Source of the DNA: a bacterium
GTDB lineage: Bacteria > Patescibacteriota > Doudnabacteria > UBA920
Length of the DNA stretch: 64,000 nucleotides
NCBI GenBank assembly: GCA_016699995.1
Contig: CP064996.1
Location: forward strand, 626,963 to 690,962
Reading direction: 5' to 3'
The position numbers were made by a program, and so were the translations under genes. The notes beneath the pieces are model-generated. The model made no database searches. It was not told the origin of the DNA and saw nothing but the letters and a program-made list of their open reading frames with translations. This document shows positions 23,593 through 41,184 of the stretch, one piece after another. Numbering within the stretch: position 1 is the first letter of the stretch; every line of letters starts with the position of its first letter.

Positions 23593-23832
23593 ATGAAAGG
23601 AAAGAACGGGAACGGAAAACGTAACGGCGCGGCAGAGAGAAAACAATGTTCGGGATGCTTCATACTGATGGCAGAACAGGAAACCGGCATGCAAAAAAAA
23701 TACGGCAAGTATTTCCACGCAGGACCAGTATGTATCAAAAAGTACGACCAGTATGAACAGAATCGAAAGGACAAAGAAGCCTCTCGACCGACCGCAGTGA
23801 ATGCTGCACAACCCCTTGCCTCACCCGCCTAA
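23593..23832 (+). CDS. small basic Cys-containing hypothetical protein
   Basis: 79 aa. RBS AGGAGAGGAAATATG. Cys at CSGC...C. Followed by a terminator at 23848-23878. Confidence 0.4.
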   Translation: MKGKNGNGKRNGAAERKQCSGCFILMAEQETGMQKKYGKYFHAGPVCIKKYDQYEQNRKDKEASRPTAVNAAQPLASPA

Positions 23833-23847
23833 CCCGTTTAAGAACAA

Positions 23848-23878
23848 AGAGCGACCCCCTTGTCGCTCTTTTTATTTC
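23848..23878. terminator. bidirectional rho-independent terminator
   Basis: AGAGCGAC-cccctt-GTCGCTCT plus TTTTATTT, between the small ORF and convergent radA. Confidence 0.65.
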
Positions 23879-23895
23879 GCTTGTGCCATATTAGA

Positions 23896-25194: not shown

Positions 25195-25365
25195 ATATAA
25201 ATTATACCGCAAAGCCCATAAAGGCTCTATCAATATTGCATAGAGTTTAAATTAGTAAATATACAAACAAAAAGTACTACTTTCTCACTAGTCCTCGGCC
25301 CCCCAGTAATCTCAGGTAAGGCCTGCGGAATCGTTCGAAAGCAGCACTTTTTGTTTTCTTAAAAA

Positions 25366-26499
25366 CTATCTCAAAAATAAGTAATACAGAGAGCCGTCTT
25401 GGTTATTGCGGAAGAACAATACATTGCCGTCAAAACTCAGGAACGGATCCTGCACATCTACGTTCGTTCCGGGAGCAAATTCGGTGCGGCTGCCAGACAT
25501 GTCGATCTTGTAAACCGTATCAGTGGTGATACCCTGATTAGCAGTGCCCGCTGTCGGTACACCAACAACAATTGCCGTGCTGTCTTTGGTCCACACAGCT
25601 TTGGTAGCAGAAGTCGTCACGCCCAAGCTACGGCTTTCGTTAGTGATAACGTCGAAGTAGTAAAGTTCGTAAGTAGAAGAAGAGGAGTTATACCTAGTGA
25701 ACAAAAACTTCTTGCTATCTGGCGACCAGACTACTTCCCGGTTATAACCATCGCGAATTAGAGACTTAAAAGTTTTACCGTCTGGAGTGACAGTGGTAAT
25801 GCCGTTACGGCTCATGTCCGAAGTTTGAGTCCTGTAAAAAGCAATGTGTTGACCATCCGGGGAAACACTGATGACATTGTCCGGTTCGTACAAGTCTGTG
25901 AGCAGCTGATAATTCTTTGTATCGGGATCGGAAACATTTAAAGTTGCTTTGCCGTCATTGCCAACCCATACAAAATAAATCCTGTCGCCATTAGTGTTCC
26001 AGTCTAAGCTGCGAACTTGCAGAGGCAAATCTATATAATTACCGCCATCTGGGCTATAGTAGCTCCACTTTCTGCTGGTGCCGCTTCCAGATTCTGCAAT
26101 ATAACTATTACCGACATTGGGCCACAGAATCTTGGCAATGTCGCCTTTCGCTGGAACGCTAATTTCTGTCTTATCGCTGAGCAATACAGAAGCAGTATCG
26201 ATATTCATGCTGGTGCGGAATAATTGCCCTTGTCGATTAAAATAAGCAATGCCATCGCCCTGGAAAAATAAAGCTGGACCGATTACGGATTCGTCAGTTA
26301 ATTTGGTGGCCTGCTTGTTTGTTGGCGTTTCCTCTATGGGATCTTCCTCAATTTCTGTCGGCTCCTCGACTATAACCGGAGTTTCCTCTACAACTTGTTC
26401 AGGTTCTTCTTTAGATGAACGCTGCCAAATGATAAAGCCCAGTGTTCCGACTATGAGGATAAATATCGCGCCTAAAATGGCAATTGCTCTTTTATTCAC
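25366..26499 (-). CDS. membrane-anchored TolB-like/PD40 beta-propeller protein
   Basis: N-terminal TM, acidic linker, then repeated PD40-type blades (YYSPDGGNYI, SVSPDGQHIAFY, VVWSPDSKKFLFT). Confidence 0.65.
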   Translation of the reverse strand: MNKRAIAILGAIFILIVGTLGFIIWQRSSKEEPEQVVEETPVIVEEPTEIEEDPIEETPTNKQATKLTDESVIGPALFFQGDGIAYFNRQGQLFRTSMNIDTASVLLSDKTEISVPAKGDIAKILWPNVGNSYIAESGSGTSRKWSYYSPDGGNYIDLPLQVRSLDWNTNGDRIYFVWVGNDGKATLNVSDPDTKNYQLLTDLYEPDNVISVSPDGQHIAFYRTQTSDMSRNGITTVTPDGKTFKSLIRDGYNREVVWSPDSKKFLFTRYNSSSSTYELYYFDVITNESRSLGVTTSATKAVWTKDSTAIVVGVPTAGTANQGITTDTVYKIDMSGSRTEFAPGTNVDVQDPFLSFDGNVLFFRNNQDGSLYYLFLR

Positions 26500-26611
26500 A
26501 GTGTTTTTGTTTAATTTTGTTTCAATTTGTTAGGTTTTTTACACCTATTTAGTTGTTCACTTTTGTTCATTATATCATAATATTTGCAAAAGAACAAACC
26601 AGAGAACACCC

Positions 26612-28561
26612 CTATTGAGTTAATCCAGTGCTGGGAATTGCGCTGCCCACATTCTTGCAAGCCTCGACAAAACTGCTACCCAAAGTATCACCACGAAACC
26701 AATCCACTGCCCACGTGATGGGACCACCAGCAATTGTGGCAATCCAGCCGCTGCCGTCTGCACCGCTTGCATGACAGGCGGCCACAAATAGCACAAAAGC
26801 TAGCACAAAAATCATCAGTACAATTACAACGATAATAATGTTAACAGTATGAACCAACCAGCGCTGCCACCAAACTAATTTCACTCTTAAAATGAAGGCC
26901 ACCAAGACGATTATTTCCATTAGGATAAAAGTAAGGCCGAAAGTTGGAACCAGTCCATCGAGGCAGGCCATATAGGCCTTATCCAGAATAGCGGCCAGAC
27001 CAGCCTTGGCCGCCTGCTTAGCAGCTCCTTTTTTATCTCCGCTCAGAGCTTTGCTTGCGATATCCTGTATCTCCTTTGGGTCTATTCCACCCTTAGCTCC
27101 TTTTGCTCCGCCCATCTTACCGCCCGCGCCTGCACCCATCTTACCGCCTGCACCTGCGCCAGCTCCCGCGCCGCCTGCCTTTGCGCCCATACCACCTGCG
27201 ACTCCGCCCATCTTACCGCCCGCGCCTGCACCTGCGCCAGCTCCCGCGCCGCCTCCAGGCGCACCTATGCCACCTTTAGGCATAGAATTACCCCTAGCTC
27301 CGCCCAACTGAGACATCTTAGAATTCATTGCATCCGGCCCCCCTGCCCCACCATAACCTTTCAGTTTTTTAGGATCCTTGCCTAACTTTTCGAAGGCTTT
27401 GCTCTTTTGAGCAGGATCTTTTAATTGATCGGGGTTATCATTTTTCTGAGCGGCGGAGCGCTCGTCCTGCTTTTGCTCCTTTTGCGGGTCTTTGGATTCA
27501 TTATCCTTCTGATCTTTTCGTTCATCATCTTGTCGGTCATCTTTCTTATTGTCTTGCTGCTGGTCTTGAGGTTCTGTATCTACTTCGGCATCATCAGCAG
27601 AATCTTCCTCACTTTGATCTTCTTCATCATCCACATCCTCCGACCCTGCAACAGTCTCCGCAGACTGCTCATTAAGCAGCGCTTGCTGCTGACGGCGCAG
27701 ATCTTCTTCGTACTTCTCATTTGCTTTGCGGCTCTCTGACTTAGCTTGAGTTTCATTTTCCTGGATCATCTGTTCCATCGTTTCATCGTCCACGTCTAAA
27801 ATCGGCTCCTGCTCCATGCGCTGCCGCTCTCTTTCTATTACATCGTCCGGCAAATACATTTCTGGCTTATCTTTACTAGCCTTAAACTGAGCCGGCGATT
27901 TTTGAATACCACCTTGTGGCGGCCAGTACTCTCCGCCTATTTTTTTATTCAGCTGTGCTTCGTCCCATGCCTCTTCTGCCAACTTTTTATGAATATCCTG
28001 ACCCTTGTGATGCAAACTGCCATCTTTGTTGTATACATCCTGCGCACTGTAACCAAAACTTTCGTGGAACCCGCCAGAAGTAGCCATGCCCTCATAATTT
28101 TGCATACCGCTCGGCAAATGAGCCACTGTGAGCTGCACTCTTCCACCTGCGCCTTTCTTTAAAGAATACTCAGCTGCTATTTGGTGCATTAGCTTCCCGA
28201 CGCCCTTATACTCATCGCCATAAGACTTCATTGACTCTACGTACACCTTAGGTTTATATTTTCCAGACGGATCCGAACCATAAGTGAGGCGCTCGTGATT
28301 TTGGTGGAATTTGCCAGTTGTTTGTAAATCCTGAAGCTCAGTCTGACTATAATATTTTAAGAGCTCTTTTCCCACCATTCGGTCTTTGGGATCAAAAACA
28401 CCAACCTCTAACATGTCCCCATACTTACCAGCTCTAACGGTTACGGGAACTTTGCGGTTGGTGCCTTTTTCTATGACAAAACCCTGACCCACTTTAGGGC
28501 CAAAGGAATGAGACTCTGTTAATGAATCCACTTTAGCTCGGTCTTTTGCATCCGACGCCAT
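26612..28561 (-). CDS. modular T4SS-associated protein: N-terminal globular domain, acidic linker, Gly/Ala-rich repeats, C-terminal 3-TM anchor
   Basis: 649 aa. Residues 1-230 are globular with unknown fold. 280-400 are D/E/Q/K-rich. 410-480 carry (GAGAGAGAGGKMGG)n repeats. The C-terminal hydrophobic helices are TFGLTFILMEIIVLVAFIL, NIIIVVIVLMIFVLAFVLFVAA. Confidence 0.65.
   Translation of the reverse strand: MASDAKDRAKVDSLTESHSFGPKVGQGFVIEKGTNRKVPVTVRAGKYGDMLEVGVFDPKDRMVGKELLKYYSQTELQDLQTTGKFHQNHERLTYGSDPSGKYKPKVYVESMKSYGDEYKGVGKLMHQIAAEYSLKKGAGGRVQLTVAHLPSGMQNYEGMATSGGFHESFGYSAQDVYNKDGSLHHKGQDIHKKLAEEAWDEAQLNKKIGGEYWPPQGGIQKSPAQFKASKDKPEMYLPDDVIERERQRMEQEPILDVDDETMEQMIQENETQAKSESRKANEKYEEDLRRQQQALLNEQSAETVAGSEDVDDEEDQSEEDSADDAEVDTEPQDQQQDNKKDDRQDDERKDQKDNESKDPQKEQKQDERSAAQKNDNPDQLKDPAQKSKAFEKLGKDPKKLKGYGGAGGPDAMNSKMSQLGGARGNSMPKGGIGAPGGGAGAGAGAGAGGKMGGVAGGMGAKAGGAGAGAGAGGKMGAGAGGKMGGAKGAKGGIDPKEIQDIASKALSGDKKGAAKQAAKAGLAAILDKAYMACLDGLVPTFGLTFILMEIIVLVAFILRVKLVWWQRWLVHTVNIIIVVIVLMIFVLAFVLFVAACHASGADGSGWIATIAGGPITWAVDWFRGDTLGSSFVEACKNVGSAIPSTGLTQ
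27100..27290. repeat. imperfect tandem DNA repeats (~96 bp unit) encoding Gly/Ala-rich repeats
   Basis: CCATCTTACCGCCCGCGCCTGCACC recurs at about 27112 and 27208. Encodes the GAGAGAGAGGKMGG units on the minus strand. Confidence 0.6.
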
Positions 28562-28565
28562 AGGA

Positions 28566-30407
28566 TTACCTCAAATCTTCTTTGCTTTGCTCTATCTCTA
28601 ACAGCTGCTTCGGATCGGTGGTGATAATCTGGTCTTCGACATAAGAAGCATAAACCTTGATGGCTGCATGCTTAAGACCGGCGAAGAAAATACCCTCGCC
28701 CACATCGCTTTCCAGTAATAAATACTTCTCACCCTCCGTGAGGAAAAATGTTTCAGTGACAATATCGATAGCAGCAGGACTTTGCTTAAGCAGCAACTGA
28801 ATAGATGAGTTCGTAACAATCGGCTTGCCGTAAGTACTGGCCATGAAATCGGCTACATCCTGAGTAATGGTGGTGAGTCCTAGATAATACTTACGGGCTC
28901 GCTTGGCAATACCGAATACGAACCGAGCGGAGTCTTCGTGCTGCATCAAGATCCAGGCTTCGTCCAACACCAAAATACGTTTCTTTAATTCGCTTCGCAC
29001 CACATTCCAAATGTGGCCAAGAATTATATACATAGCAATCGGGCGCAACTGCTCTTCTAGATCGCGGATAGAAAACACCAGCAGCTGATTCTGCAGCACT
29101 ACATTGGTTTGGTTATTTAATAATCCGGCAAAAGTACCTTCGGTGAACTTGCCCAAGCGAAGCGCCAAGCTTTCGCCGCCAACCATGCCTCCCAAAATTT
29201 CTATCAAATCGCTCATGACCGGCATTTCGGCGGTAGCGAAATCAGAATTCTCGGTAATATCTTTTTTAGCATAAGTCTGCCAAATCGCCTTATCCATAAT
29301 GGCTTCTTCGGTCGGATCCAGCTTGCCCAACACCAAGCCCATTAAGCCGATGAGGCTGATAACCGCGCTACGTAAAATATCTGCCTTGTCCTCGTCTTGC
29401 AAACCGATCGGCAAGTCAAATGGATTAATACGAAAATCGGAGTTAAGAGAAATGTTTAAGAAGGTTCCGCCTACAGCTTCGGCTAAATGCTGATACTCAT
29501 TTTCGGGATCGATAACAATAACTTCGATGCCGATCATCAGCGAACGCAAAATTTCTAATTTTACGGAATAAGACTTGCCAGCACCAGACTTAGCGAACAC
29601 AACGGAATTAGCATTTTCCATTGCAAAGCGGTCGAATAAAACCAAACTATTATTGTGGCGGTTAATTCCGTACAGAATACCGTCGTTGCCGGTAAGATCC
29701 GAAGATACAAACGGAAAAGTGCTAGAGAGCGGGCTGGTATTAAGGTTGCTGGTTACATCTAGATCATCCAAGCACAATGGCAAAGTAGAATTATACCCCG
29801 CCTCTACCGCGAGCATGGCGCGTTTGGTCACTACTAATTTCGCACCCAAAGCGCTTTCTAAAACCTTAGAATTCTTGTCTAGCTCTTCGAGTGAGTCGGA
29901 GTACAAAGTAAAGTAAAGGGCAAAGCGGAAGAAGTGTTCTACTCCCTGCTGCAGCTGATCGCGAAGCTCTTCTACGTCGTGGTAAGCGGTCTCCAGCAAT
30001 GGGTTGCGGGCCAAGCCTTTTTCCTGTTCGATCGTAATCTGGGAGCCGATTTCACCCACTTTGCTACGCAGTTTTTTAAGTACCATGCCGGAATCGATCG
30101 GGTAAATGAACATGGATACATCTAGAGCGCTCTCGGAGTTGATAATAAAAGATAGCCAGTTAGAAGACAAGAATCGCGGATATGCCAAAACGAAAAAGCT
30201 GCGCCCAAACTTGCCGTTAAGTTCGAACCAAGAGTTGGTAAACTTTAAGCTGCTGGGAGCTAGTAAATCTTTTAGGGTAGTGACGCCTTCCCGATACTCT
30301 TTCTCTACTTCGGCCAGTTTGCCCTCGGCCGAAATCTTACCTTTAAGGTGTTCGAGCTCTTCCTTCTTCTTTTCTAATTCGGTTTTGTTAAATGAAAATA
30401 AGCTCAT
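28566..30407 (-). CDS. virB4: VirB4/TraC/CagE-family conjugative ATPase, C-terminal ATPase portion
   Basis: Walker A FAKSGAGKS, Walker B ILVLDEAW. Gram-positive/CPR type. The start codon overlaps the upstream ORF's stop (TAATG). Confidence 0.85.
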   Translation of the reverse strand: MSLFSFNKTELEKKKEELEHLKGKISAEGKLAEVEKEYREGVTTLKDLLAPSSLKFTNSWFELNGKFGRSFFVLAYPRFLSSNWLSFIINSESALDVSMFIYPIDSGMVLKKLRSKVGEIGSQITIEQEKGLARNPLLETAYHDVEELRDQLQQGVEHFFRFALYFTLYSDSLEELDKNSKVLESALGAKLVVTKRAMLAVEAGYNSTLPLCLDDLDVTSNLNTSPLSSTFPFVSSDLTGNDGILYGINRHNNSLVLFDRFAMENANSVVFAKSGAGKSYSVKLEILRSLMIGIEVIVIDPENEYQHLAEAVGGTFLNISLNSDFRINPFDLPIGLQDEDKADILRSAVISLIGLMGLVLGKLDPTEEAIMDKAIWQTYAKKDITENSDFATAEMPVMSDLIEILGGMVGGESLALRLGKFTEGTFAGLLNNQTNVVLQNQLLVFSIRDLEEQLRPIAMYIILGHIWNVVRSELKKRILVLDEAWILMQHEDSARFVFGIAKRARKYYLGLTTITQDVADFMASTYGKPIVTNSSIQLLLKQSPAAIDIVTETFFLTEGEKYLLLESDVGEGIFFAGLKHAAIKVYASYVEDQIITTDPKQLLEIEQSKEDLR

Positions 30408-31093
30408 TATTTTTGAATGTTTTTAATATCGGCTTTGCCTAATTGACTGGCATCGATGCTCGGACCGGACGCAAAGTTATAAGAGTTGTACACCAGCTCT
30501 ATGAGCTGGTCGGTGGTGAGCTTTACCACGCGCAGCCCGCTGCTACCTAAAGCCGCCGCGACAGTATTGGTGCGTTCATCCAACTGTTTTTTGTAAGTCT
30601 TTAAGTTAGATTCCCTGTCCGTAATCGCTTTAGTTTTTCCTGTGCCGAAAATCTTGCTAAAAATGCTGATGTTAGTCGGATTAATGCTCGTATCGTAAGG
30701 CACGATGACGTAAAAGTTCTTGCTCATGACGTTGGCTGTTTCTACCAAGCGGTCGATAAACTCTATATATTCCTGAGTCTGCATGCGCAGCAACTCGTTG
30801 TTTTGCTTTTCCATCATCACGCGCAGCTTTTCTGTATATTCCGCGATATCCATTTTGCGGGATTGGATCAAAATCTGAACATGAAATTCTAAAGAGTTTA
30901 AAAATCTTTGATAGCTATAAATAAGCGCGTTCTGCTCTTCTTCACTTTTTAAATCGAAGTTGGTGCTAGACACCGCCAATACAGTACGCAATGTGCCGTT
31001 ATCCATCACGATTAAATCGTCACGGATTTCTGCGAGACGTAAAAATTGCTGTGTCGGATTGCCTATTTGTTGTTTTTGTTTGTTTAACGCCAT
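30407..31093 (-). CDS. VirB4 N-terminal domain-like protein (split VirB4, translationally coupled)
   Basis: 228 aa with LIVMDNGTLRTVLAVSSTNFDLKSEEEQNALIYSYQRFLNSLEFHVQILIQS pattern like the VirB4/CagE N-terminal domain. 228 + 613 aa is roughly full VirB4 length. Confidence 0.5.
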   Translation of the reverse strand: MALNKQKQQIGNPTQQFLRLAEIRDDLIVMDNGTLRTVLAVSSTNFDLKSEEEQNALIYSYQRFLNSLEFHVQILIQSRKMDIAEYTEKLRVMMEKQNNELLRMQTQEYIEFIDRLVETANVMSKNFYVIVPYDTSINPTNISIFSKIFGTGKTKAITDRESNLKTYKKQLDERTNTVAAALGSSGLRVVKLTTDQLIELVYNSYNFASGPSIDASQLGKADIKNIQK

Positions 31094-31551
31094 TATTTAG
31101 CCTGATTTTGTTTGTTTTGATTGATTCTTTCGATCAGTTTGGTTTCTTCGCTCTGCTCCTTATTAAGCAAATAGTTGAGCTCCTTAATCTTTAGAGCAGT
31201 TTCCTTTAGGTCCTTTGGAGCGACTTTTTCTTCTGTTGGGATCGGCAGTGTCTGTTCGGCTTCTTCGTGGCCTGTCTTGTGGTAAACATACTGCTTGGGC
31301 CCGAACAAGAATTTAATAAAATTACCGAAGCTAGCATAAAGCGGCCGGCCGTTTAATTTGCCAAAAGTTAACGCCAGAGCTGGAACGCCAGATCCGAGAC
31401 CCGCTACCACAGTAGCTGGAACATTTTTTGTGATAGTGAAGATAACAAAGGTGAATACGCCTGCGCCAAAAATGATCGCAAACTGCTTAAAAGTTAAGCC
31501 TGCGATAATCTTATCTTCTACATCGGTAAATTGTGGGACTGGGAATTGCAT
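31093..31551 (-). CDS. VirB3/PrgI/TcpE-like small membrane protein of Gram-positive-type T4SS
   Basis: 152 aa. N-terminal FTDVEDKIIAGLTFKQFAIIFGAG motif and 2 TM, as in PrgI/TcpE proteins found just upstream of VirB4. Stop overlaps the next start. Confidence 0.5.
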   Translation of the reverse strand: MQFPVPQFTDVEDKIIAGLTFKQFAIIFGAGVFTFVIFTITKNVPATVVAGLGSGVPALALTFGKLNGRPLYASFGNFIKFLFGPKQYVYHKTGHEEAEQTLPIPTEEKVAPKDLKETALKIKELNYLLNKEQSEETKLIERINQNKQNQAK

Positions 31552-31565
31552 GTTAATTATATCAC

Positions 31566-32609
31566 TTATACACGGTTGACCTTAAGCGAAAGCAGAATGT
31601 CGCTAACGAATTCAAATTCCTCTTGAGATAAAGCCAAATTTTGGGTACGACCAGAGAGCATGCTCTTACCGTAATTCAAATAGTCCTTATATAGAGGGCT
31701 GTTTTCGAAACTGGTGAGGACTTGGAAGTATCCCTGTGTGGAAGCAAGATTTGTAATGGCTTCATGAAAGGTTTTACGATTCTGAACATGCAAAACCGAG
31801 CTGGTTATAGCGGCGACGTCCTCTGGAGACTTTAATTCTATATTCTGCGTAGGAGTATAGTTGTAAGCAGCCTGGCTTACAGGTTGAGCTTGGGGAATTG
31901 GCTTTGGCTCTACAGGAGGCATAGGAACAGACTCTTTCGCAGGTGCGGGTCTTTGGGGCACAGAAGCAGGCTGAGGCCTTGGAGGAGGAGCTGTCTGCAC
32001 TGGCCGCGGCGCTGGCCGAGGCGCTAATTGTTGAGATGATGAGGCAGGCGAATATTGTGCGGGATTCGGTTCGGCTTGCACTTGATCCGGCCTCATTATC
32101 AAATGAGGGCGAGGATTAATTGGCGGCATAGCGGCGGTAGAACTCGGCCTTGGAGTCTGCGGCATCGATTGTGGCTGTTCCGAAATCGGGGTAGGTCTAG
32201 AAGCACCTGGCTTAGGAACATTGACTTTGCTCGGTAAATTGCTTATATGAGACAGGGAGGACGCATTGATATGAGGCAACGGCTTAGAAGGTTTTGGTAC
32301 AGGCTGAGGCGCAGGTTGTTGTCGTGCCGGTTGCGGTCTTGGAGGAGGAGCTGTCTGCACCGGTTGCGGCGCGGGAACAGGCTGTGGTCGCGGTGCCGGC
32401 CGTTGAAATACTGGAGCAGGCTGAGGTACAGGATTTGGAGCAGGCTTCGGTTCTGGCTTTGGTCCCATTAGAATTTCTTCCAATTCGGCTACCTGCTTAT
32501 CATTCATAAGCTCTATTAGCGCCATCCACTCTGTTTTTTCCTGGTCGGTTAAAACATTGGAGGTGCGTACCAGGTTATGTATTTGTTTTAATTTTTGATC
32601 GCTAAGCAT
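31566..32609 (-). CDS. proline-rich protein with internal duplicated PRPQP repeats
   Basis: 347 aa. N-terminal helical segment, then about 200 aa P/Q/A-rich with the duplicated block RPAPRP(Q/V)...QTAPPPRPQPA. Conserved C-terminal ~90 aa. Confidence 0.6.
   Translation of the reverse strand: MLSDQKLKQIHNLVRTSNVLTDQEKTEWMALIELMNDKQVAELEEILMGPKPEPKPAPNPVPQPAPVFQRPAPRPQPVPAPQPVQTAPPPRPQPARQQPAPQPVPKPSKPLPHINASSLSHISNLPSKVNVPKPGASRPTPISEQPQSMPQTPRPSSTAAMPPINPRPHLIMRPDQVQAEPNPAQYSPASSSQQLAPRPAPRPVQTAPPPRPQPASVPQRPAPAKESVPMPPVEPKPIPQAQPVSQAAYNYTPTQNIELKSPEDVAAITSSVLHVQNRKTFHEAITNLASTQGYFQVLTSFENSPLYKDYLNYGKSMLSGRTQNLALSQEEFEFVSDILLSLKVNRV
31976..32363. repeat. direct DNA repeat (~28 bp core GG(C/T)CTTGGAGGAGGAGCTGTCTGCAC) 360 bp apart
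   Basis: 31976-32003 and 32336-32363 are near-identical. They underlie the protein-level duplication in the Pro-rich ORF. Confidence 0.6.
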
Positions 32610-33571: not shown

Positions 33572-33583
33572 TTCAATTTATTT

Positions 33584-36500
33584 TTATACTAAGTCGGGAG
33601 GATTAAAATCCGGCGGTAAAGGGTTTGCGCCAGTAGTTGTATTGTTCGTTCCGGGGTTTGTTGTCCGACCACCTGTGCCGGTTCCACCACCAGGAGGTGT
33701 GCCAGGATTAGCCGGTGGCACATACGGTCTAGCCATCGTCGGACCGCCTCCTGCTATAGGCCCGCCTCCGCCTCCCGGTGCGCCAGGAGCGCCAGGGGCT
33801 CCGGGAGTTCCAGCTGGGCCAGCTGGGCCTGCTGGGCCAGCTCCGCCCGCTGGACCTGTTCCACCCCTGCCTCCACGTCCACCGGTTCCGCCAGTCGCAC
33901 CAGCTGCACCCGTGGCGCCTGTTGCGCCAGGGGCTCCAGCAGCGCCGCGTGGACCTGCTACAAATTTCCTGCCTGCGACATCCTCTAATGCGGCTCTAAT
34001 CTCCTTGCCCATATTTTTGCCCATTGCCTTAAAATCATCCTCAGTGATCACATCCAAAATCTGACCAGCTCTCTCCTTAGACATATCGCGTTTTACCTGT
34101 TTGGCCTTCTCTGTAGTATTCAATGCAGACAACCATTTAACCAACCCTGGGGTGGCTTCTTCTCTATTAGTTGTAGGATTGAAATGCTTAATATCGCCTT
34201 CTTTAACATCTTTGATTCCCAGCTTTGCAAACCGTTTTTCTACGTCCACCATTTGCGCCTGGTAAGACTTGATGATGCCGCCGCCACTAGGCATGTTCTT
34301 TACGGCATATCCCAAAGGAATAGCGCCGTTTTTAGCTGCGGTATTGGAAATCTCTCTAAATACGTTGGTCTGGTTGCGTTCGGAAGTCTTAAACTTATCT
34401 TTCACCATTTTCTCCAAGCCGACAATATTGTACTGGTAGGGATCCCCATTATCATCCTTCATGTTCTTCATAAGCTTGTCGGCCATTCCTGTTTCGGCAA
34501 TCTGCTTAACATATGCTCGCGCTTGTACAAAATTATTCTTCTTTAAAGCATCTAAGAAACCGGCTTCCAGCTGATCATAATCTAAATCCAAATCGGCAAT
34601 TTCCTTCTTTTGCTTCATAACCTCCATAGCTTCTTCCTTCTCCAAAGCCTTAGAATATGGGCGCTGGTATTTTTCTGCTTCTGTATTTAGTCGGGTAACT
34701 TCTTTTAGCAAAGCCTCCTTTACGCCATCGTTCATAGGGCCGTTGTAGCCCAGCTCTCGGCGCTTCGCTTGATCATTATCAATTACAGAAGTAGCATCGG
34801 CAATTTTCCTCTGCAGTTCATCCGTTATTTTTGTGGTGTCCACTACTGGTTCGATAGGATCACCTGGTGCCATTAATCCCTGCTGAACAAGCCCGCCTGG
34901 ATCGGTGACTATGCCGGTAGCCGGGTCTACGACTTCCGGATGATCAACCTTCATGTCCAAATTAACCTGCAAGTCTGCCAGGCTCACTTCGGTCGCTCCG
35001 GTAGCAACTGCATTGTTTACTGCATCTTCCAGAACATCGCGGCGAGCCTTAACTTGAGCTTCCTGATACTTAAGATCGCGGTTGCCAGGATCCTTCAAAA
35101 CAGCCTGTTCTGCCTTTTCGGAATCTTCATTCAATTTCGCAAGCTCGTCCTGAGCCTGAGCCAAAGTCAAACGGCCGGCTGATAGATCATTATATTTCTG
35201 CTGATCAGCGTCACGCTGGTCTGCTACGCCCCTAATTTCATCGTCATTCTTGATTTCCGTAGCAATGCGCTGATTGCGTTTTGCTTCTTCGAGCATAGGC
35301 GCACCAGGATCTTTTCCGCGCAGCTTGCGCCATGCCCACTGGGCACCCATGATTTTGTTTTCACCAAACGGCTGCAAGAAATTACTAACTTTCTTAAAGT
35401 CATCTGCAAACCGGCCGTTCATCTGTTCCTTTGGAATGTCGAAGTAACCTTTCTTAGCCGCCTTTAAGAACTCTTTCGGCCTTGCTACTGCGCGAATGGC
35501 TTTTTGCAAGCCAGGCTTCTTGTCTATGCCAAACAGCTTAGAGTTAGCCAAACTGTCTGCGCCGGTATCCTTAGCCCATTTGCCGCCCCAAACGGCTGCT
35601 TTGCCGGCGCCGCCGGCCACGGCCAATGGAGCGGTTTTGGTAACGAAGTCAAAGCCCTTCTTGGCAAACTTAACAATCTGCTGGGCCCCAACCGTACCGC
35701 TGCTTTGGGCAAACTTCATACCAAGGAACAGGAAAAACAGCACGACGAAATGCGAAATAACTGTAATTACATACTCAGCCAGCTCTCCGGAAATCCCTCC
35801 TAGCAAGAAGGTGCGATCGCGTCCCGCTACCACTGTATCGCCATTCTTGGAAGCAAAAGTTGTAGCCATTAGAGCGGCAATATTTAGGAAGAATGCCAAT
35901 ATGGGAACCGTAAAGGCATGCTTGATAAACATATCCCACCATTGATCCCAGTACTTTTTTGTATCCGGTAAAATTCTGGCAACGTAGGCTATTGGCGACA
36001 CCATATACAAAATCCACAGCACAACCAGCCTGATGATAATGAAGGCGATCAGTGCGACGAAGGCAAAAAATGCAGCTATTGCCAACACAAGTAGTATAAT
36101 AGGCTTGGTAAGATCACTAGCACTGGCATCAACCGAGAAGTTGCTGCTATCCGTAACTCCTGCACCGCTGCTTTGACCCCTAAAAAACTTGATAGGATCA
36201 ACCATCAATTTTTGACCGAGCGCTTCTATGACCTTGCTTTCTGCTGGCAGGAACTGAGCCTGCACAGTGTCGGCGATACCAACTACTCCTTGCGCAATGA
36301 CCAAGCTAAAATTGACCAGCAATGCCATCAGCACGAGCCACAAAATAAAGCCCCGGGTTTTGCCAGAATCATCGACTTGAAACAGAACACGCAGACCCAT
36401 CCATAACAACGCGACTATGAACCCGATGTTTGCTAGGTTGCGCATAATGACCCAGCCCGGGTAAATGAAGTTTACGAACTCATCTTTATGAGCGTAAATA

Positions 36501-38188
36501 TTTAGCAATGCGTTCAAGACCGGCACAAGAATGAACGCGAAGATCCAATAAATTACACCAGTAATTAACAGAACAATGTAAGAAATGACCCTGCGGATAA
36601 AGTTGAATAGATCGCTTCCGTTAGATTTTTCAGGATCTTCGTTGGAACTGGTGGTTTGGGTCACTGTGTCCGCAAAGCCAAATTTTGCATAATTGTCATC
36701 ATCGCATTTTGCTTTTTCTTCGTCAGTAGTTTTTTCCGCCTTACAAGCAGCCTTAATATCGTCTATTTTTTCGTAAACTTCTACAGTAAATTTTTCTAAT
36801 CCACCAGATCCAGCAATTAAAATAACACCATTGCTAACCAACAAGTTAAAAATCGAGATAGGGATACTGCCCTTTGTGCCGCCTATGGCAGGCAAAGCAA
36901 CGAATTCCGCAGAGCCATAAGGCTTACCAGCCTCGGGGGTTTTTGTTGTATCTACCTTGCTTAGCCATGCCTTAGATTTCAATAACGGGCTGTAATCGTA
37001 CCCTCCCGTCGGAGGGATGTACTCCGCCTGAGAAGGATCCCCCAAATCACCAGTGCTGTGCTTTGAGCTAAAAATTAATCCACTACAATCAGTACCAGTA
37101 AAAGTCGGTAGACAAGCGATCTTGCTCTTCCCCTTAACAGACGAAGCATACCCAAAATATATAACACTGCCGATGTACTTAGGAGTAAAATCTACCCCCG
37201 TCCAGCTATCGTCTTTTTGAGGCAGGGTAAAATACTGGAGTTTACCTAGCGGAGTACCACCCCATTCCACATGGACTTTATCCAGACCGCCAGTACCGGC
37301 AAATCTCATATCCCCGTCTGTTTTTAGAACGCGATATTTTTTTCTTAGGCCATACCCGTCTTTATTGGCCTTTATGGCAATAGATATCTTTTGATAATCA
37401 ACAGTTTGGGTATTATCGGTGTCACCATCCCCGCTGCCTTCCACATTTGGCAAGTCTCGAGCTGGGGGGCTATTATCCGTTTTATCCTTATTATGCTGAA
37501 TAGTCTGATTTGCCAACCAAGTTCCGGACCTGTTTGAACCGCCATACATATAAGCGTACAAGTAATATTCAGACCGGTACGACCCGCGTATGCTTCTAAC
37601 GCTCTGTTCCAATTTTTCGACAGTAACACCATTCTTGCGGCAATGAAACCCGTACGAATTATTCGCTTCGTCATAATACATCTTGGCCGTACAGAACAGT
37701 TCGTAATTTGTAGGGCGAACTGTGGGTATATAAGAAGTCAAACCTAACGCTGCAACATACGCATAAACCTCAAAAGTATAACTATTTTCCTTATTTTGCT
37801 CCTTACATTTATCTGCCAATTCCTTAGTAATCGGAACCTTCATATAAATATCGAATGGTTCCTTAGTACCTACAGTGTCTTTGCTCAGCAACATCTGGTA
37901 GCCGCTGCTGATGACGCCTGCTGTGTCAAAAATACGGCCAATAGAAACATTGGTACAGTCTACTGCCGCTTGAGCTTCCGGTATAGATGTTAGTGATTCA
38001 AAAACAGCTCTACCGTCTGAATTAGGTGAAATAAGACTGAGAAAAGGCAAAAACAAAGAAGCGATCAGAATCCCCAGGACAGTTTTCTGGAAGATTCCAA
38101 TGCCTCTTTTACTATTCCTGCTGCCGGCTTTATTCCGCAGTTTTTGAGTCAAAAATTGAATGAATTTTGGTATTGATTTCTGTATCAC
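33584..38188 (-). CDS. giant VirB6/TrbL-like polytopic membrane protein with large ectodomain and collagen-like Gly-X-Y C-terminal tail
   Basis: 1534 aa. N-terminal signal/TM. A ~520 aa extracellular region. A ~300 aa block of at least 6 TM helices (VirB6-like: LLITGVIYWIFAFILVPVL..., LVLMALLVNFSLVIAQGVVG...). A long coiled-coil cytoplasmic region. The C-terminal ~110 aa are GPRGAAGAPGATGATGAAGATGGTGGRGG...GTPGAPGAPGAPGGGG. Confidence 0.7.
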   Translation of the reverse strand: MIQKSIPKFIQFLTQKLRNKAGSRNSKRGIGIFQKTVLGILIASLFLPFLSLISPNSDGRAVFESLTSIPEAQAAVDCTNVSIGRIFDTAGVISSGYQMLLSKDTVGTKEPFDIYMKVPITKELADKCKEQNKENSYTFEVYAYVAALGLTSYIPTVRPTNYELFCTAKMYYDEANNSYGFHCRKNGVTVEKLEQSVRSIRGSYRSEYYLYAYMYGGSNRSGTWLANQTIQHNKDKTDNSPPARDLPNVEGSGDGDTDNTQTVDYQKISIAIKANKDGYGLRKKYRVLKTDGDMRFAGTGGLDKVHVEWGGTPLGKLQYFTLPQKDDSWTGVDFTPKYIGSVIYFGYASSVKGKSKIACLPTFTGTDCSGLIFSSKHSTGDLGDPSQAEYIPPTGGYDYSPLLKSKAWLSKVDTTKTPEAGKPYGSAEFVALPAIGGTKGSIPISIFNLLVSNGVILIAGSGGLEKFTVEVYEKIDDIKAACKAEKTTDEEKAKCDDDNYAKFGFADTVTQTTSSNEDPEKSNGSDLFNFIRRVISYIVLLITGVIYWIFAFILVPVLNALLNIYAHKDEFVNFIYPGWVIMRNLANIGFIVALLWMGLRVLFQVDDSGKTRGFILWLVLMALLVNFSLVIAQGVVGIADTVQAQFLPAESKVIEALGQKLMVDPIKFFRGQSSGAGVTDSSNFSVDASASDLTKPIILLVLAIAAFFAFVALIAFIIIRLVVLWILYMVSPIAYVARILPDTKKYWDQWWDMFIKHAFTVPILAFFLNIAALMATTFASKNGDTVVAGRDRTFLLGGISGELAEYVITVISHFVVLFFLFLGMKFAQSSGTVGAQQIVKFAKKGFDFVTKTAPLAVAGGAGKAAVWGGKWAKDTGADSLANSKLFGIDKKPGLQKAIRAVARPKEFLKAAKKGYFDIPKEQMNGRFADDFKKVSNFLQPFGENKIMGAQWAWRKLRGKDPGAPMLEEAKRNQRIATEIKNDDEIRGVADQRDADQQKYNDLSAGRLTLAQAQDELAKLNEDSEKAEQAVLKDPGNRDLKYQEAQVKARRDVLEDAVNNAVATGATEVSLADLQVNLDMKVDHPEVVDPATGIVTDPGGLVQQGLMAPGDPIEPVVDTTKITDELQRKIADATSVIDNDQAKRRELGYNGPMNDGVKEALLKEVTRLNTEAEKYQRPYSKALEKEEAMEVMKQKKEIADLDLDYDQLEAGFLDALKKNNFVQARAYVKQIAETGMADKLMKNMKDDNGDPYQYNIVGLEKMVKDKFKTSERNQTNVFREISNTAAKNGAIPLGYAVKNMPSGGGIIKSYQAQMVDVEKRFAKLGIKDVKEGDIKHFNPTTNREEATPGLVKWLSALNTTEKAKQVKRDMSKERAGQILDVITEDDFKAMGKNMGKEIRAALEDVAGRKFVAGPRGAAGAPGATGATGAAGATGGTGGRGGRGGTGPAGGAGPAGPAGPAGTPGAPGAPGAPGGGGGPIAGGGPTMARPYVPPANPGTPPGGGTGTGGRTTNPGTNNTTTGANPLPPDFNPPDLV

Positions 38189-38304
38189 AAGGGCTAAAAT
38201 AACCTCTTAAACTTAAAATAATTATACCACAGATAACCCTAAAAACCCAAGAAATTTTTCGCACCAAAAAACCACCCTTCCTGGGTGGTTTTTAATTATG
38301 ACTT

Positions 38305-39951
38305 TTATGGCATTTCGCCGCGGGGAGCGAAGTTAGAACGTCTCGGGGAGAACTCAGAAGTTTGCACCCCCTGGACGTTGCCGCCGCCAGAACCCCCGGA
38401 GCTTGGTGTGCCCGGCGGAACGATAGGAGGAGTAAATCCTGGTACGCCGCCCTGAGGCAACTGGGAAACCAAATCCCCGATCGTCCCATTAAGCGCTGTC
38501 ATGCCGGCTTCCTTAAAGATTTTACCGCTGCTCTTACCGCCAGTGATTAAGTTGGTAAGGAAGTTGCTGGCCACATCAGACAAGAAGCTCGCGTAGAATG
38601 GCAAGTTGTCGCTCTTCAGCTGAGAGCCCTGATCCAAATGCTGCTTAACAAAATTAGTTAGCTGATCGCTTACAAAAGTTGCAGGAGAGTCTATTACCGG
38701 ACAAATGTCTGAAACAGGATCAGGGTCTTCTGCAGGCAACTGTTTAAGCTTGGCGTCGAGTTCGTTAAACTTAGCTTTCGCTTTGTCCAATTCTGCCTGA
38801 GTTGTTTTCTTGGCGGCCAATGCCTGCTCCAATTTAACTACTATATCTGCCGCAGCCACTACTTCTGCAGATAACTTTTCCCACTTTTGATCGATAGAAG
38901 CCTGGCGGCCCACTAAATCTTTACAATCACGCGGCGGAGCAAAGCCATTGCTCTGCTGAACTTCCTTAGTGGCAGTTTCCATACCAGCAGCTTTTACCTT
39001 TTGAGCATTATCTTGGCTGACTTGAAGCTGAAAAGCCGGGCTGGCATTTTCGGCTCCATATGCCGCCAAGCAACGCAGAGAGTTTGCATCGTTAACATTA
39101 AGTTGCGGAGTGCTGCCGCACATCGCTCCCAGATAGTCTTGGGCTTTGGTTGTAGCAAATGCCTGGGCTACCTTAGCCTTGTTAGGCAATTTTTCACTCT
39201 GAATTAGAGAGCGAAGCATCATCTGGGTACGGGCGTCGCCCTTATAATTCTCGTTAATATACTTCATCGAGTAAATTTGCACTCCCACAGCATCGGCATA
39301 AGCCAAGTAATCATCAATCTTATACTTCTGAACCATGCCGTTAACCAGCTTTGTGGTTAAGTTTTTGTTGAGGTTGAGCACCAGCTTAACCATGAAGGCT
39401 TTAAGCACGTCTTTAATGCTAGCGCTTTGGCGAGCCTTTAGATCTTCGATTACCACGCGCAATGCCTCACTGGTCTTGCTAAATTTATCCTGCTCTCTTT
39501 GCAATTCCTGGCCCATAGTCACGGTTACTGTGGGAGCAGCCCGCAAAGCGGTTACATAAATATCAATACATTCCTTGGCTGCGGTGGCCTTAACTATTTT
39601 CGCAGTCAATTGAGTAGACTCACCGATGCCTCCACCGATTACGCTCAGAAAGGAGCTGGAAGCAACATCTGTAAAGCTTTCTACTGCATCGGAGTTATCT
39701 GCAGCTGCGATGACGGTCGTACAAGTGGAGCTCAATGTTCCACGGATGGAATTAATCGCGGCCGAAGCATTGCCTGGCAAGCCAATTAAATTATTTGTCG
39801 TGATCACTCCTGTCGTCAAAGGAGACAACGGCAATTCCGAAGTAGGAACAGCCAGCTGCGCCTGAGCCTGCGCGCTAAACGAAAAAATCGCTCCGCCTAG
39901 GGAAGCTAGTGTGATGCTAAAGATTAAAAAAGAAATTAGGGCGCGCTTCAT
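38305..39951 (-). CDS. secreted T4SS-cluster protein (signal peptide)
   Basis: 548 aa. N-terminal signal peptide (LIFSITLASLGGAIFSFSAQAQA). Helical and coiled-coil rich. C-terminal Gly/Pro-rich tail. Confidence 0.65.
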   Translation of the reverse strand: MKRALISFLIFSITLASLGGAIFSFSAQAQAQLAVPTSELPLSPLTTGVITTNNLIGLPGNASAAINSIRGTLSSTCTTVIAAADNSDAVESFTDVASSSFLSVIGGGIGESTQLTAKIVKATAAKECIDIYVTALRAAPTVTVTMGQELQREQDKFSKTSEALRVVIEDLKARQSASIKDVLKAFMVKLVLNLNKNLTTKLVNGMVQKYKIDDYLAYADAVGVQIYSMKYINENYKGDARTQMMLRSLIQSEKLPNKAKVAQAFATTKAQDYLGAMCGSTPQLNVNDANSLRCLAAYGAENASPAFQLQVSQDNAQKVKAAGMETATKEVQQSNGFAPPRDCKDLVGRQASIDQKWEKLSAEVVAAADIVVKLEQALAAKKTTQAELDKAKAKFNELDAKLKQLPAEDPDPVSDICPVIDSPATFVSDQLTNFVKQHLDQGSQLKSDNLPFYASFLSDVASNFLTNLITGGKSSGKIFKEAGMTALNGTIGDLVSQLPQGGVPGFTPPIVPPGTPSSGGSGGGNVQGVQTSEFSPRRSNFAPRGEMP

Positions 39952-40691
39952 TAGAATTTAATTTTGTGTTTATTTTCAATCTGAGTTCTCAAAGACGCCA
40001 GGCGGTCGGTTAGGCTGAACATGGCGCTGCTGTACTGAGCAATGTTTTCATCGCCTGTCATGAAAGCCAAACCGAGCTTGCCGATTGTTTGATAATACAA
40101 GGTATTGTATCGGTGATAATCTACCAATTCGGTAGGAACAGGAATGCCGTTTAACGATTCGATGATGCCCTTCACCTGGTCCTGAGTTTTTTGTAAAAGA
40201 TTTTTATCGGAGCTGTTTAAATTTGCAAATAGTTCTGGGGTATTGTAGTAACTTTCGATCTGCAGCATTTTGTTTGCGTAAGCTTCTACTGTCTGTTGGT
40301 TTGTCGGAATCATCTCTTTGATCGGAATCAAACTCAACTGCTCATTGCTGTACAATTGTTCGACGCTTGGAATTTCATCCAAGCCGATTGCTTCTCCTAA
40401 TACTTGTCCATTAGCCTGGCCGCGGTCCAATAGTGCAAATTGGTTTTCCAAATGATTGATGTACTCTTCTGTTTCTGCATCCAATCCATTTAATGCGTAG
40501 ACTTCGCTGCGAACGTCTTCGTACGTCAGCATAGGTTCTTGAGTCTCCTCTGCCTGAGTAAACACTGCCGATAATTTTATATCCATTCTAGGAACAATTA
40601 AAACAGCAAAAACTAAAACCGCCGCGCCTAGCAAGTAAGCGTGGTTGCGAGTGAAGCCTAAGCTTTCTAAATTTGTGTTTTTGTTTTGCAT
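39951..40691 (-). CDS. membrane-anchored hypothetical protein
   Basis: 246 aa. Single N-terminal TM (AYLLGAAVLVFAVLIV). Stop overlaps the downstream start. Confidence 0.6.
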   Translation of the reverse strand: MQNKNTNLESLGFTRNHAYLLGAAVLVFAVLIVPRMDIKLSAVFTQAEETQEPMLTYEDVRSEVYALNGLDAETEEYINHLENQFALLDRGQANGQVLGEAIGLDEIPSVEQLYSNEQLSLIPIKEMIPTNQQTVEAYANKMLQIESYYNTPELFANLNSSDKNLLQKTQDQVKGIIESLNGIPVPTELVDYHRYNTLYYQTIGKLGLAFMTGDENIAQYSSAMFSLTDRLASLRTQIENKHKIKF

Positions 40692-40731
40692 TCTTGTTTC
40701 TGTAAATTGAGTTGGTAATAACGACTACGCG

Positions 40732-41097
40732 CTACGCAGATGTTCCTACCTGCGCGATTGGATAAATTAAATACGGAACCGCACACGGTACCGGGGCAGG
40801 CAGATACGTACCGAGTATAAATGTTCCCGGCTTTACCAAATTATAAAATGGGTACAACTGCGAACCATGAGCCATCGTTAAAGCTATCGGAGCACCATTA
40901 AATGAAGCGACAATCGTATGGGCAACTGGGCATAGCGGAGTCGGCGGAACAAATGCTGCTACCACTCCTCCTACCGGAATACCGGAAGGAAGTATAGCCG
41001 CTTGGGTGCTTGGTACTTGTCCAGGCAAAACAAAAAAAATCCCAGTTAATAAAAGAACGGATAATATTTTCTCAATAAATTCGTGTTGCATATTCAA
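40732..41097 (-). CDS. small secreted hydrophobic protein (possible pilin-like subunit)
   Basis: 121 aa. Signal-anchor (ILSVLLLTGIFFVLPG) then Pro/Gly/Ala-rich mature region. First gene of the minus-strand T4SS-like block. Confidence 0.45.
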   Translation of the reverse strand: MNMQHEFIEKILSVLLLTGIFFVLPGQVPSTQAAILPSGIPVGGVVAAFVPPTPLCPVAHTIVASFNGAPIALTMAHGSQLYPFYNLVKPGTFILGTYLPAPVPCAVPYLIYPIAQVGTSA

Positions 41098-41184
41098 TTT
41101 TATTTTTATTTTTGTTTCGTTTGAGCATTTTGCCGTGGCAAAACTTTCAATCTATAATATTATTATAGCAGAAATTAACAAATT

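Follow-up and report, generated by a model that had tools for sequence, protein, structure and literature searches.

A giant VirB6-like protein and a TolB-like propeller in a putatively vertically inherited type IV secretion locus of a Doudnabacteria chromosome

Eleven open reading frames (ORFs), here called g1 to g11, fill positions 25366-41097 on the minus strand of the window, a 64-kb stretch (64,000 nucleotides) of the chromosome of a member of the Doudnabacteria (contig CP064996.1). Their products point to the T4SS (type IV secretion system) already known from Patescibacteria, not to a new kind of machine. ORFs, outer limits and common orientation are exactly those of the original prediction, as is the tight packing of the genes: the g2/g3, g7/g8 and g8/g9 pairs overlap by 1 nucleotide, g5/g6 by 22 nucleotides, and gaps of 4-116 nucleotides separate the remaining ones. 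All eleven ORFs are intact, and the GC content of the cluster (0.44-0.49) matches that of the rest of the window. Homologues of ten of the eleven genes are found in the same order in related loci, and the cluster genes are therefore not chance ORFs; g1 and g10 are the least conserved. The related loci, 80 in number, come from a scan of one genome per prokaryotic species, and the plasmids used for comparison from a set of 72,556.

The motor of the system is encoded by g9 and g8. The g9 product (28566-30407; 613 amino acids) is a VirB4 ATPase, scoring 345.7 bits (5e-103) against the NCBIfam VirB4 model conju_CD1110 (NF045971), whose cut-off is 325. It is matched in Pfam by P-loop_TraG, AAA_10 and DUF87, and in the PDB by the C-terminal domain of Thermoanaerobacter VirB4 (4ag5; 1e-42) and by TrwK of R388 (3e-6). 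The Walker motifs on which the first assignment relied were both located and are intact, Walker A as AKSGAGKS at residues 272-279 (29571-29594), Walker B as ILVLDEAW at residues 478-485 (28953-28976). Grouping with FtsK or another P-loop family had been set as the result that would speak against VirB4; the CD1110 score and the 4ag5 match place g9 with VirB4 instead, and FtsK/HerA was dismissed. The match to the CD1110 model spans model positions 157-728. The product of g8 (30407-31093; 228 amino acids), the stop codon of which overlaps the g9 start by the single nucleotide mentioned above, matches the N-termini of VirB4 proteins in three NCBIfam models, VirB4_plasma (positions 98-237; 4e-9), TrsD (7e-7) and the same CD1110 model (positions 8-120; 2e-5). 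In BLASTP comparisons with one 797-residue Clostridium VirB4, g8 aligns to residues 1-145 (E 7e-7) and g9 to residues 198-757. As the model match of g9 starts only at position 157 and g8 matches VirB4 N-termini, g8 is a TrsD-like, detached N-terminal domain of VirB4, the motor being split into two chains. A g8 homologue of about 228 residues is a separate ORF in 76 of the 80 related loci, and the split is a stable arrangement. Earlier most components had been regarded as lacking an assignable function; this stands for g1, g2, g3, g5, g6 and g10, not for g8.

Two membrane proteins would make up the translocon. The smaller one, encoded by g7 (31093-31551; 152 amino acids), passes the Pfam PrgI threshold (5.1e-10, 40.2 bits; gathering score 27) and features two hydrophobic helices in hydropathy plots, which bears out its description as a PrgI/VirB3-type protein with two membrane helices. 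Homologues are present in 72 of the 80 loci, directly upstream of TrsD and VirB4. The larger one is the 1534-residue product of g4 (33584-38188). Its N-terminal part (36632-38188) consists of a basic head (residues 1-35), a membrane anchor (36-54) and an ectodomain of about 465 residues (55-519); a core of hydrophobic helices (residues ~520-870; 35579-36631) follows, and then a charged, helical, cysteine-free C-terminal extension (residues 871-1534; 33584-35578). Residues 1-35 include nine Lys or Arg and no Asp or Glu, the stretch right after the last hydrophobic helix 13 Lys or Arg versus four Asp or Glu, and all eight cysteines fall within the ectodomain. Because of the charge bias at both ends and the position of the cysteines, the protein would have its N-terminus inside the cell, the ectodomain outside and disulfide-bonded, and the extension that follows the core in the cytoplasm.

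Identification of the g4 core as VirB6, in line with the first description of this protein, is suggested by three independent routes. Pfam TrbL matches 32 of the 44 homologues that make up the core family alignment (A1), the best at 3e-10, and the g4 core segment at 8e-5; whole g4 yields weak matches to Pfam TrbL/VirB6 (4e-4) and to the NCBIfam model MMCAP2_0566 of Mycoplasma conjugal transfer (3e-6), both on the hydrophobic region. The family profile has TrwI, the VirB6 of R388, as its sole sequence match in the PDB (E 8e-4). In an AlphaFold2 model of residues 490-900 (pLDDT 75, pTM 0.68) the predicted fold is again that of VirB6, TrwI/VirB6 chains occupying ranks 1-6 of a Foldseek search of the PDB (probability 0.97-1.00, target-normalized TM-score 0.46-0.56, best E 2.2e-3) at 12-15% identity. 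Relatives of g4 in a large protein database carry precomputed PF04610/PF19590 assignments, the annotation of one reading 'type IV secretion system protein'. The giant polytopic protein thus carries a probable VirB6 core, and a lack of VirB6 topology, which would have told against the first reading of the locus, was not found in the family, profile and fold comparisons.

The three parts of g4 differ in conservation. Residues ~520-870 are the only ones detected by BLAST in all 59 homologues; the ectodomain is detectable in about five of them, the C-terminal extension in about 12. The homologues measure 535-1432 amino acids, and g4 is the longest seen in the analysis. Considering these lengths and those of the two VirB6-like proteins of Candidatus Southlakia epibionticum ML1 (Saccharibacteria; 998 and 1088 amino acids), giant VirB6 proteins are the rule in the Patescibacteria system, and the size of g4 is not exceptional. 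Part of its extra length is accounted for by 22 consecutive G-X-Y triplets at residues 1412-1477 (33758-33955), a run unique to this genome: 12 triplets are found in the homologue of locus L008, four at most in other relatives. The collagen-like tail is therefore not part of the system design, and was rejected as a conserved fiber. It was also rejected as an LPXTG-anchored adhesin of the Scl type. Matches to the Scl1 and Scl2 collagen-like adhesin models are weak low-complexity ones (27.3 and 23.7 bits; cut-offs 400 and 325), and the protein ends in PPDFNPPDLV, LPXTG being absent.

Downstream of VirB4 lie a hypervariable membrane protein and a propeller protein. The former is encoded by g10 (26612-28561; 649 amino acids), rich in Gly (13%) and Ala (10.5%) and devoid of a signal peptide. 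An N-terminal domain of about 250 residues is followed by an acidic/basic disordered stretch, a Gly/Ala-rich tract, two transmembrane (TM) helices and a short cysteine-bearing tail. No match was obtained in Pfam, NCBIfam or the PDB, no hydrolase or SLT domain was detected, and the by-eye resemblance of motifs in the N-terminal domain to GNAT proteins found no support in the three databases. In relatives, the slot between VirB4 and the propeller is always occupied by one protein, 137-1207 residues long (at least 250 in all loci except one) and lacking a signal peptide; in loci at the Doudnabacteria level hydrophobic helices are located towards the C-terminus. A single BLAST family unites 45 slot proteins, which share C-terminal TM helices, a Cys..YDWW.G..Cys tail and a hypervariable N-terminal part. 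An SLT lytic-transglycosylase domain is carried by six of 66 slot proteins (L017, 9501-11279; L021, 13432-15240; L032, 11917-14895; and three other loci). This links the slot to the VirB1 position of Firmicutes conjugation modules, in agreement with Clostridium pCDC3875, where an SLT (VirB1-like) gene sits in the corresponding place, and g10 seems to occupy that position. In the window, a CHAP and LysM cell-wall hydrolase is encoded 4 kb upstream of the cluster on the opposite strand (45360-46451, plus strand), and might substitute for the VirB1 that the cluster lacks. Homologues of this hydrolase were not seen in related loci, the flanks of which mostly end before that distance.

The last gene of the cluster, g11 (25366-26499; 377 amino acids), encodes a protein in which hydropathy and Pfam delineate a membrane anchor (residues 6-24) in place of a signal peptide, an acidic/Pro linker and a beta-propeller. 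Pfam PD40 matches g11 at 1.8e-8 and 41 of 51 members of its family, and the best PDB match of the family profile is the propeller of TolB (2hqs_A; 3.9e-24). The description as TolB-like holds for the propeller domain, not for orthology. The score against the TolB equivalog TIGR02800 is 39.9 bits (cut-off 343), PDB matches cover the propeller part of TolB only (chain residues ~170-310), and the TolB N-terminal domain was not detected; g11 as a TolB orthologue was rejected. Propellers of this type follow VirB4 on the same strand, no more than 4.5 kb downstream, in 45 of 46 close and nine of 13 distant loci. The anchored propeller thus appears to be a conserved, previously undescribed partner of VirB4. 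A survey of Patescibacteria T4SSs (Quiñonero-Coronel et al. 2025, PMC12102498) has no occurrence of PD40, TolB, propeller or Doudnabacteria in its text, and does not describe a variable gene just downstream of virB4.

Three secreted or bitopic proteins, as had been proposed, are encoded upstream of VirB6: g1 and g3 have signal-peptide-like N-termini, g2 an N-terminal membrane anchor. The g1 gene (40732-41097; 121 amino acids from the first TTG, 119 according to a gene caller) was also called as a 119-residue gene on Logan contig L081. Its product contains 13% Pro and two cysteines, has no match in Pfam or NCBIfam, and is lineage-specific, homologues being found in two of the 80 loci only. The g2 product (39951-40691; 246 amino acids) is anchored by residues 20-38, as judged by hydropathy, the remainder being extracytoplasmic. 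Homologues reside in nine loci, each time immediately upstream of g3, and g2 is a variable accessory component. Size and topology fit VirB8, a bitopic protein with NTF2 fold; no sequence match to VirB8, or to any other protein, was found in Pfam, NCBIfam or the PDB. The g3 product (38305-39951; 548 amino acids; identical to GenBank QQS22678.1, IPM19_03540) has six conserved cysteines and a predicted all-alpha structure. Its disordered Gly/Pro tail is followed in the family by a nearly invariant C-terminal F.PRG....R motif (38305-38450; alignment A2), which could be a sorting or anchoring signal. The family is narrow, with 181 representatives among 1.84 billion proteins, and no specific fold match was found. 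It had been asked whether the secreted proteins resemble VirB5 or pilins. This does not seem to be the case, g3 showing no resemblance to VirB5, and g1 being rejected as a VirB2 pilin since it lacks a Pfam match and its mature part is Pro-rich rather than a two-helix hairpin. A g3-family gene is absent from L005 (2331-2790) and L053 (1987-2419), and close relatives have anywhere from 0 to 3 genes for secreted or bitopic proteins ahead of VirB6; the stretch (38305-41097 in the window) behaves like a variable cassette.

Between VirB6 and PrgI reside g5 (32588-33571; 327 amino acids; identical to GenBank QQS22676.1, IPM19_03530) and g6 (31566-32609; 347 amino acids), both soluble. The g5 protein lacks signal peptide and TM segments, and homologues are found in the same position in 32 loci; the family has no Pfam or PDB match, and only four matches were obtained in a large database. 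The g6 protein contains 19% Pro and has N- and C-terminal domains around a Pro-rich linker of about 200 residues; it has homologues in 47 loci, with conservation peaking at residues 1-50 and 250-347, and no Pfam match. The two proteins were rejected as paralogues of each other upon comparison, and may be described as soluble orphans conserved in this position. The low-complexity proteins announced in the cluster, Pro-rich and Gly/Ala-rich, are well represented by g6 and g10.

Several components of other T4SSs are missing. Pfam scans of essentially all ORFs of at least 110 residues in the 64-kb window revealed no relaxase, VirD4-type coupling protein or VirB11, in agreement with what had been noticed before. 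No protein of the cluster matches the VirB2 models PF18895 and PF04956. Among the small ORFs of the window, a signal peptide and two TM helices are found only in PrgI, a DUF5673 protein and the Pro-rich g1, none of which is a VirB2-like pilin. No DNA-binding component was recognized in the cluster, and neither an integrase nor a Tol-Pal partner gene was seen in the window.

The VirB4 of g9 is 58-93% identical to those of the 80 related loci, all in Patescibacteria. Labelled loci with at least 71% identity belong to Candidatus Doudnabacteria; at about 60% identity, Paceibacterota, Sungbacteria, Azambacteria and Portnoybacteria are found. Identity to plasmid VirB4 proteins does not exceed 35%, the best matches being CD1110-family proteins of Firmicutes and Actinobacteria. 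These values place g9, as far as sequence can tell, in the Patescibacteria VirB4 clade. A comparison with Saccharibacteria had been recommended; they have the same type of T4SS locus, but the nearest labelled relatives are Doudnabacteria.

The order of genes at the Doudnabacteria level is UvrD and KsgA, 0-3 secreted or bitopic proteins, VirB6, g5, g6, PrgI, TrsD and VirB4, followed by the variable membrane protein, the propeller, RadA and, in convergent orientation, RecG. Distant loci retain KsgA/UvrD, VirB6, PrgI, TrsD and VirB4, and the propeller in the nine of 13 mentioned above; in 43 of 55 loci RadA is the next gene after the propeller. In the window too the cluster is flanked by the housekeeping genes for RadA, RecG, KsgA and UvrD. 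VirB4 is the best-conserved gene of the neighborhood: where it is 70-80% identical, its median identity is 76%, versus 53% for RadA and 43% for RecG, and it is better conserved also than KsgA and UvrD. Its divergence correlates with that of RadA (Spearman 0.57), RecG (0.51), PrgI (0.91) and the propeller (0.83). Housekeeping flanks, the high conservation of VirB4 and its co-divergence with RadA and RecG argue for a vertically inherited, strongly constrained T4SS cluster rather than for an integrated mobile element. Surface components vary much more. In the nearest relative, identity is 93% for VirB4, 85% for RadA, ~61-64% for g3, 45-56% for g6, 45-51% for g4, 40% for g5 and 28% for g10, and extracellular parts seem to evolve far faster than VirB4. 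The components fall into three layers. Motor and translocon (TrsD, VirB4, PrgI and the VirB6 core) are invariant, the propeller is a conserved partner, and the surface parts, to which the VirB6 ectodomain, g1-g3 and the protein in the g10 slot belong, diversify rapidly.

The locus closely resembles T4SSs described in other Patescibacteria. Epibiotic growth of S. epibionticum requires the homologous cluster SEML1_0006-0019, which is without coupling protein and relaxase (Wang et al. 2023, PMC10633639); essentiality has been demonstrated in this species only. Both clusters are chromosomal, lack relaxase and coupling protein, contain giant VirB6-like proteins, and share the core order VirB6-like, PrgI, TrsD-like and VirB4 (612 residues there, 613 here), then envelope proteins. 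The S. epibionticum cluster differs in having two VirB6-like genes, one gene for an NTF2-like protein of VirB8 type and, facing the other way, six for VirB2-like pilins; downstream of its VirB4 come lysozyme, peptidase and Cys-protease proteins. The window, in contrast, has one VirB6, no pilin or NTF2-like gene, the soluble orphans g5 and g6 between VirB6 and PrgI, and the hypervariable membrane protein and TolB-like propeller downstream of VirB4; apart from the single VirB6, these are the distinctive features of the locus. According to the survey, VirB4 is found in 2,417 of 3,035 Patescibacteria genomes, most sequences forming one clade nested in the mating-pair-formation (MPF) type MPF-FATA; TrsD, PrgI and VirB6 are encoded near virB4, relaxases are rare, coupling-protein genes are mostly not close by, and ksgA, recG, radA and comF are among the neighbors (PMC12102498). 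The window conforms to this pattern in having an MPF-FATA-related VirB4, TrsD, PrgI/VirB3 and VirB6 genes adjoining virB4, a chromosomal location and, within 64 kb, neither relaxase nor coupling protein. It departs from most of the pilin-bearing assemblies surveyed, 1,135 out of 1,948 of which have a VirB2 homologue near virB4 (PMC12102498), as none is found near virB4 here. Recognition of a minimal VirB4/VirB6 system of Patescibacteria, not a full conjugative element, thus agrees with the published descriptions (PMC10633639, PMC12102498).

Conjugative systems provide more remote parallels. The CD1110/CTn2 modules of MPF-FATA type (C. botulinum pCDC3875, L082) have VirB4 proteins 31-35% identical to g9, which passes the CD1110 cut-off, and pCDC3875 is collinear with the window (VirB6, PrgI, one gene, VirB4, one gene, SLT protein). 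In pCDC3875, however, a VirD4 (CD1115) and MOBP relaxase typing are found, VirB4 is unsplit (797 residues) and VirB6 measures 260 residues, whereas in the window neither VirD4 nor relaxase was found, VirB4 is split and VirB6 is 1534 residues long. The core of g4 matches TrwI, and g9 matches TrwK, of the R388 Trw T4SS (PDB 7o3v, 7o41). That system is conjugative and diderm; besides VirB11 and VirD4 it includes a core complex in the outer membrane and the pilus components VirB2/VirB5. Patescibacteria, in contrast, have been described as monoderm (PMC12102498). The addition of large hydrophilic domains to a hydrophobic core likens g4, by description, to the extended VirB6 proteins of Rickettsiales (Rvh) and of MPF-FA systems (700-900 residues) discussed in a 2025 review, which treats Patescibacteria T4SSs as newcomers of unknown function (PMC12857230). 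Unlike these, g4 is enlarged on both sides of the core, by an anchored ectodomain at the N-terminus and by an extension of ~660 residues at the C-terminus. With TolB of the Tol-Pal system, the membrane-anchored g11 has the propeller domain in common.

We favor, at a probability of about 0.7, a vertically inherited chromosomal T4SS of the Patescibacteria clade, derived from monoderm MPF-FATA systems and used for transport at the interface with a host cell, not for conjugation. VirB4 hexamers would dock on VirB3 and VirB6 in the single cell membrane, the VirB6 core oligomerizing into the base of a channel or stalk, as TrwI does in R388. On the outer side g4 would carry its disulfide-rich, fast-evolving ectodomain, and the long charged extension would be at the probably cytoplasmic end. 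The products of g1-g3, g11 and g10 may form or maintain the portion that spans the wall zone and makes contact with the host cell, and g5 and g6 would be soluble, presumably cytoplasmic, accessory factors. The assembly would drive, at the expense of ATP, the transport of macromolecules between epibiont and host, either exporting proteins to the host, into the cell or onto it, or taking up host material.

Some observations weigh against this interpretation. A VirB2-like pilin, essential in S. epibionticum and encoded near virB4 in the 1,135 assemblies mentioned above, was not found in the window, and no VirB8/NTF2-like or VirB1-like gene was recognized inside the cluster. The absences noted cover 64 kb of a 943-kb genome, and VirD4 homologues lie far from virB4 in many genomes (PMC12102498). 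By itself, g4 scores 20.6-22.9 bits against Pfam TrbL, with a gathering score of 25.9, and the hhalign comparison of the g4 core family with one Clostridium CD1112 VirB6 was not significant; the latter result is consistent with the published finding that VirB6 of Patescibacteria matches the MPF-T profile better than PrgH. The topologies of g4 and g10 are deduced from hydropathy and charge, and the proposed function draws on analogy and on transposon sequencing (Tn-seq) in a different class.

The same machine may have been turned to DNA import, an alternative we regard as unlikely. A ComB/Ced-like T4SS would bring in DNA (or another nucleic acid) from the host or the environment and hand it to the adjacent recombination proteins, serving nucleotide supply or recombination. 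RadA/Sms (23896-25233, minus strand; Pfam zinc ribbon, RecA/KaiC-like ATPase and ChlI/Lon-like C-terminal domains) is the twelfth co-oriented gene, 132 nucleotides downstream of g11; no terminator-like site was found in the gap by a consensus scan, and RadA is possibly co-transcribed with the cluster. The RadA position directly after the propeller in 43 of 55 loci fits the hypothesis, and so does the presence in the window of RecG, ComFC, RecX, UvrD and RecO. Genes for comF, recG and radA reside near virB4 in the class ABY1 as well (PMC12102498), coupling protein and relaxase are absent as in import systems, and a perspective names T4SSs as a candidate route of nucleotide acquisition (PMC11665869). 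Yet the RadA/RecG linkage is class-specific, distant loci keeping the T4SS next to KsgA/UvrD without RadA, and the S. epibionticum T4SS lies near dnaA, dnaN and recF, so that the linkage may be inherited synteny. The g9 protein does match the archaeal importer CedB (4.5e-13), but weakly, at 48.7 bits versus the 345.7 obtained with the conjugative VirB4 model. Competence in S. epibionticum depends on ComEC and can be dispensed with, unlike the T4SS of this species, which is essential, and no DNA-binding component was recognized in the g1-g11 cluster. It is quite doubtful that the whole series VirB6-PrgI-TrsD-VirB4-variable protein-propeller-RadA is an import device feeding host nucleic acid to RadA/RecG, in which the propeller and the g10-slot protein would be core subunits replacing VirB8, VirB1 and the coupling protein; synteny is what favors this version.

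The system might alternatively build a pilus or another adhesive structure on the cell surface, by which the cell stays attached to its host, with no cargo translocated. The large, fast-evolving and disulfide-rich g4 ectodomain and g1-g3 would suit such a role, it has been suggested that tubular structures at the interface between Patescibacteria and host are T4SS pili (bioRxiv 10.64898/2026.06.21.733656), and pilin arrays are essential in S. epibionticum. Attachment as the sole function nevertheless seems quite improbable, as no VirB2-like pilin gene was found in cluster or window, ATPase and membrane translocon are the most conserved parts rather than the surface proteins, and type IV pili and dedicated adhesins already fill that role in Saccharibacteria. 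Least likely by far is the hypothesis of an integrated conjugative element, whether active or decaying, for which the cluster would provide mating-pair formation. VirB4, PrgI and VirB6 are homologous to, and collinear with, those of Firmicutes conjugation modules, and an IS200-like transposase is encoded 20 kb away. Against this stand the failure to find integrase, relaxase and coupling protein in 64 kb, the class-wide conserved order of the housekeeping neighbors, a GC content equal to that of the flanks, and the intactness of all eleven ORFs. VirB4 moreover outconserves RadA, RecG, KsgA and UvrD, co-diverging with the first two, and published phylogeny places Patescibacteria VirB4 in a single clade with rare transfer between classes (PMC12102498). 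In view of synteny, composition and conservation, we reject an integrated conjugative element.

The ultra-small Patescibacteria account for a large part of bacterial diversity and spend their lives attached to other microbes. The T4SS is almost universal among them and essential in the sole species tested, and its role has been called 'completely unknown' (PMC11665869). The locus adds no new principle, and provides a clean, complete example from a closed genome of a little-studied class. What is new is the propeller partner, the hypervariable protein in the VirB1 position and the fast evolution of the extracellular parts. The partition into three layers yields candidates for host-specificity determinants and for missing structural subunits, which could guide work in cultivable Saccharibacteria and cryo-electron tomography of environmental lineages.

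Limits of the transcription unit were sought by consensus scans. A promoter-like site (TTGCAA, 17 nucleotides, TATAAT, with an upstream TG) is found at 41162-41190 on the minus strand, ~65 nucleotides upstream of g1, and a hairpin with a 10-bp stem flanked by T-runs at 23846-23871, between the convergent RecG and RadA genes. The former is suggested as candidate promoter of the operon, by its position alone, and the latter, also aptly placed, as candidate bidirectional terminator closing the unit. The counts of such sites are no higher than in shuffled sequence, and the operon limits are therefore suggestions only. An Rfam scan of the window revealed two tRNAs and the transfer-messenger RNA (tmRNA) only; regulatory RNAs were not detected near the cluster.

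Recombination, repair and competence genes found around the T4SS are those for RecX (9895-10386), ComFC (13581-14267), RecG and RadA (21432-25233), UvrD/PcrA (42679-44856) and RecO (49099-49845). The IS200-like Y1 transposase (61888-62322, minus strand; Pfam Y1_Tnp, 2.6e-30) is the sole mobile-element gene seen in the window. Two predicted surface proteins are encoded on the minus strand, one of 605 residues with DUF11 repeats (47273-49090), the other of 505 residues (62468-63985), Thr/Ser-rich and weakly matching a fibronectin-type (purple acid phosphatase N-terminal) domain; both may be adhesins of the kind essential in Saccharibacteria.

Three co-oriented genes at 14965-18461 (plus strand) encode a 558-residue protein without matches, a 343-residue protein with an acidic N-terminal half, in which a JAB/MPN-like HSHGSGG...SGQD motif was spotted by eye, and a 232-residue ThiF/E1 protein (Pfam ThiF, 9e-19; PADLOC Cap2-type E1-E2, 2e-14). 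The trio may be a ubiquitin-like conjugation or defense module. Alternating long poly-C and poly-G tracts at 50630-50890 (~260 bp), which give rise to spurious Pro/Gly ORFs at 50566-50956, look like an assembly or sequencing artifact rather than biology. The gene for isoleucyl-tRNA synthetase (51499-54499, minus strand) is divided into two ORFs in different frames (52763-54499 and 51499-52860) with a 98-nucleotide overlap; no long homopolymer is visible at the junction, and the break is either an assembly frameshift error or a sign that this essential gene is truly split or broken. SmpB and a standard one-piece tmRNA are encoded ~4 kb apart on the plus strand (56332-56769 and 60729-61116), the tag peptide of the latter being VNSWNKVVTAFKNAQLAPAFA.

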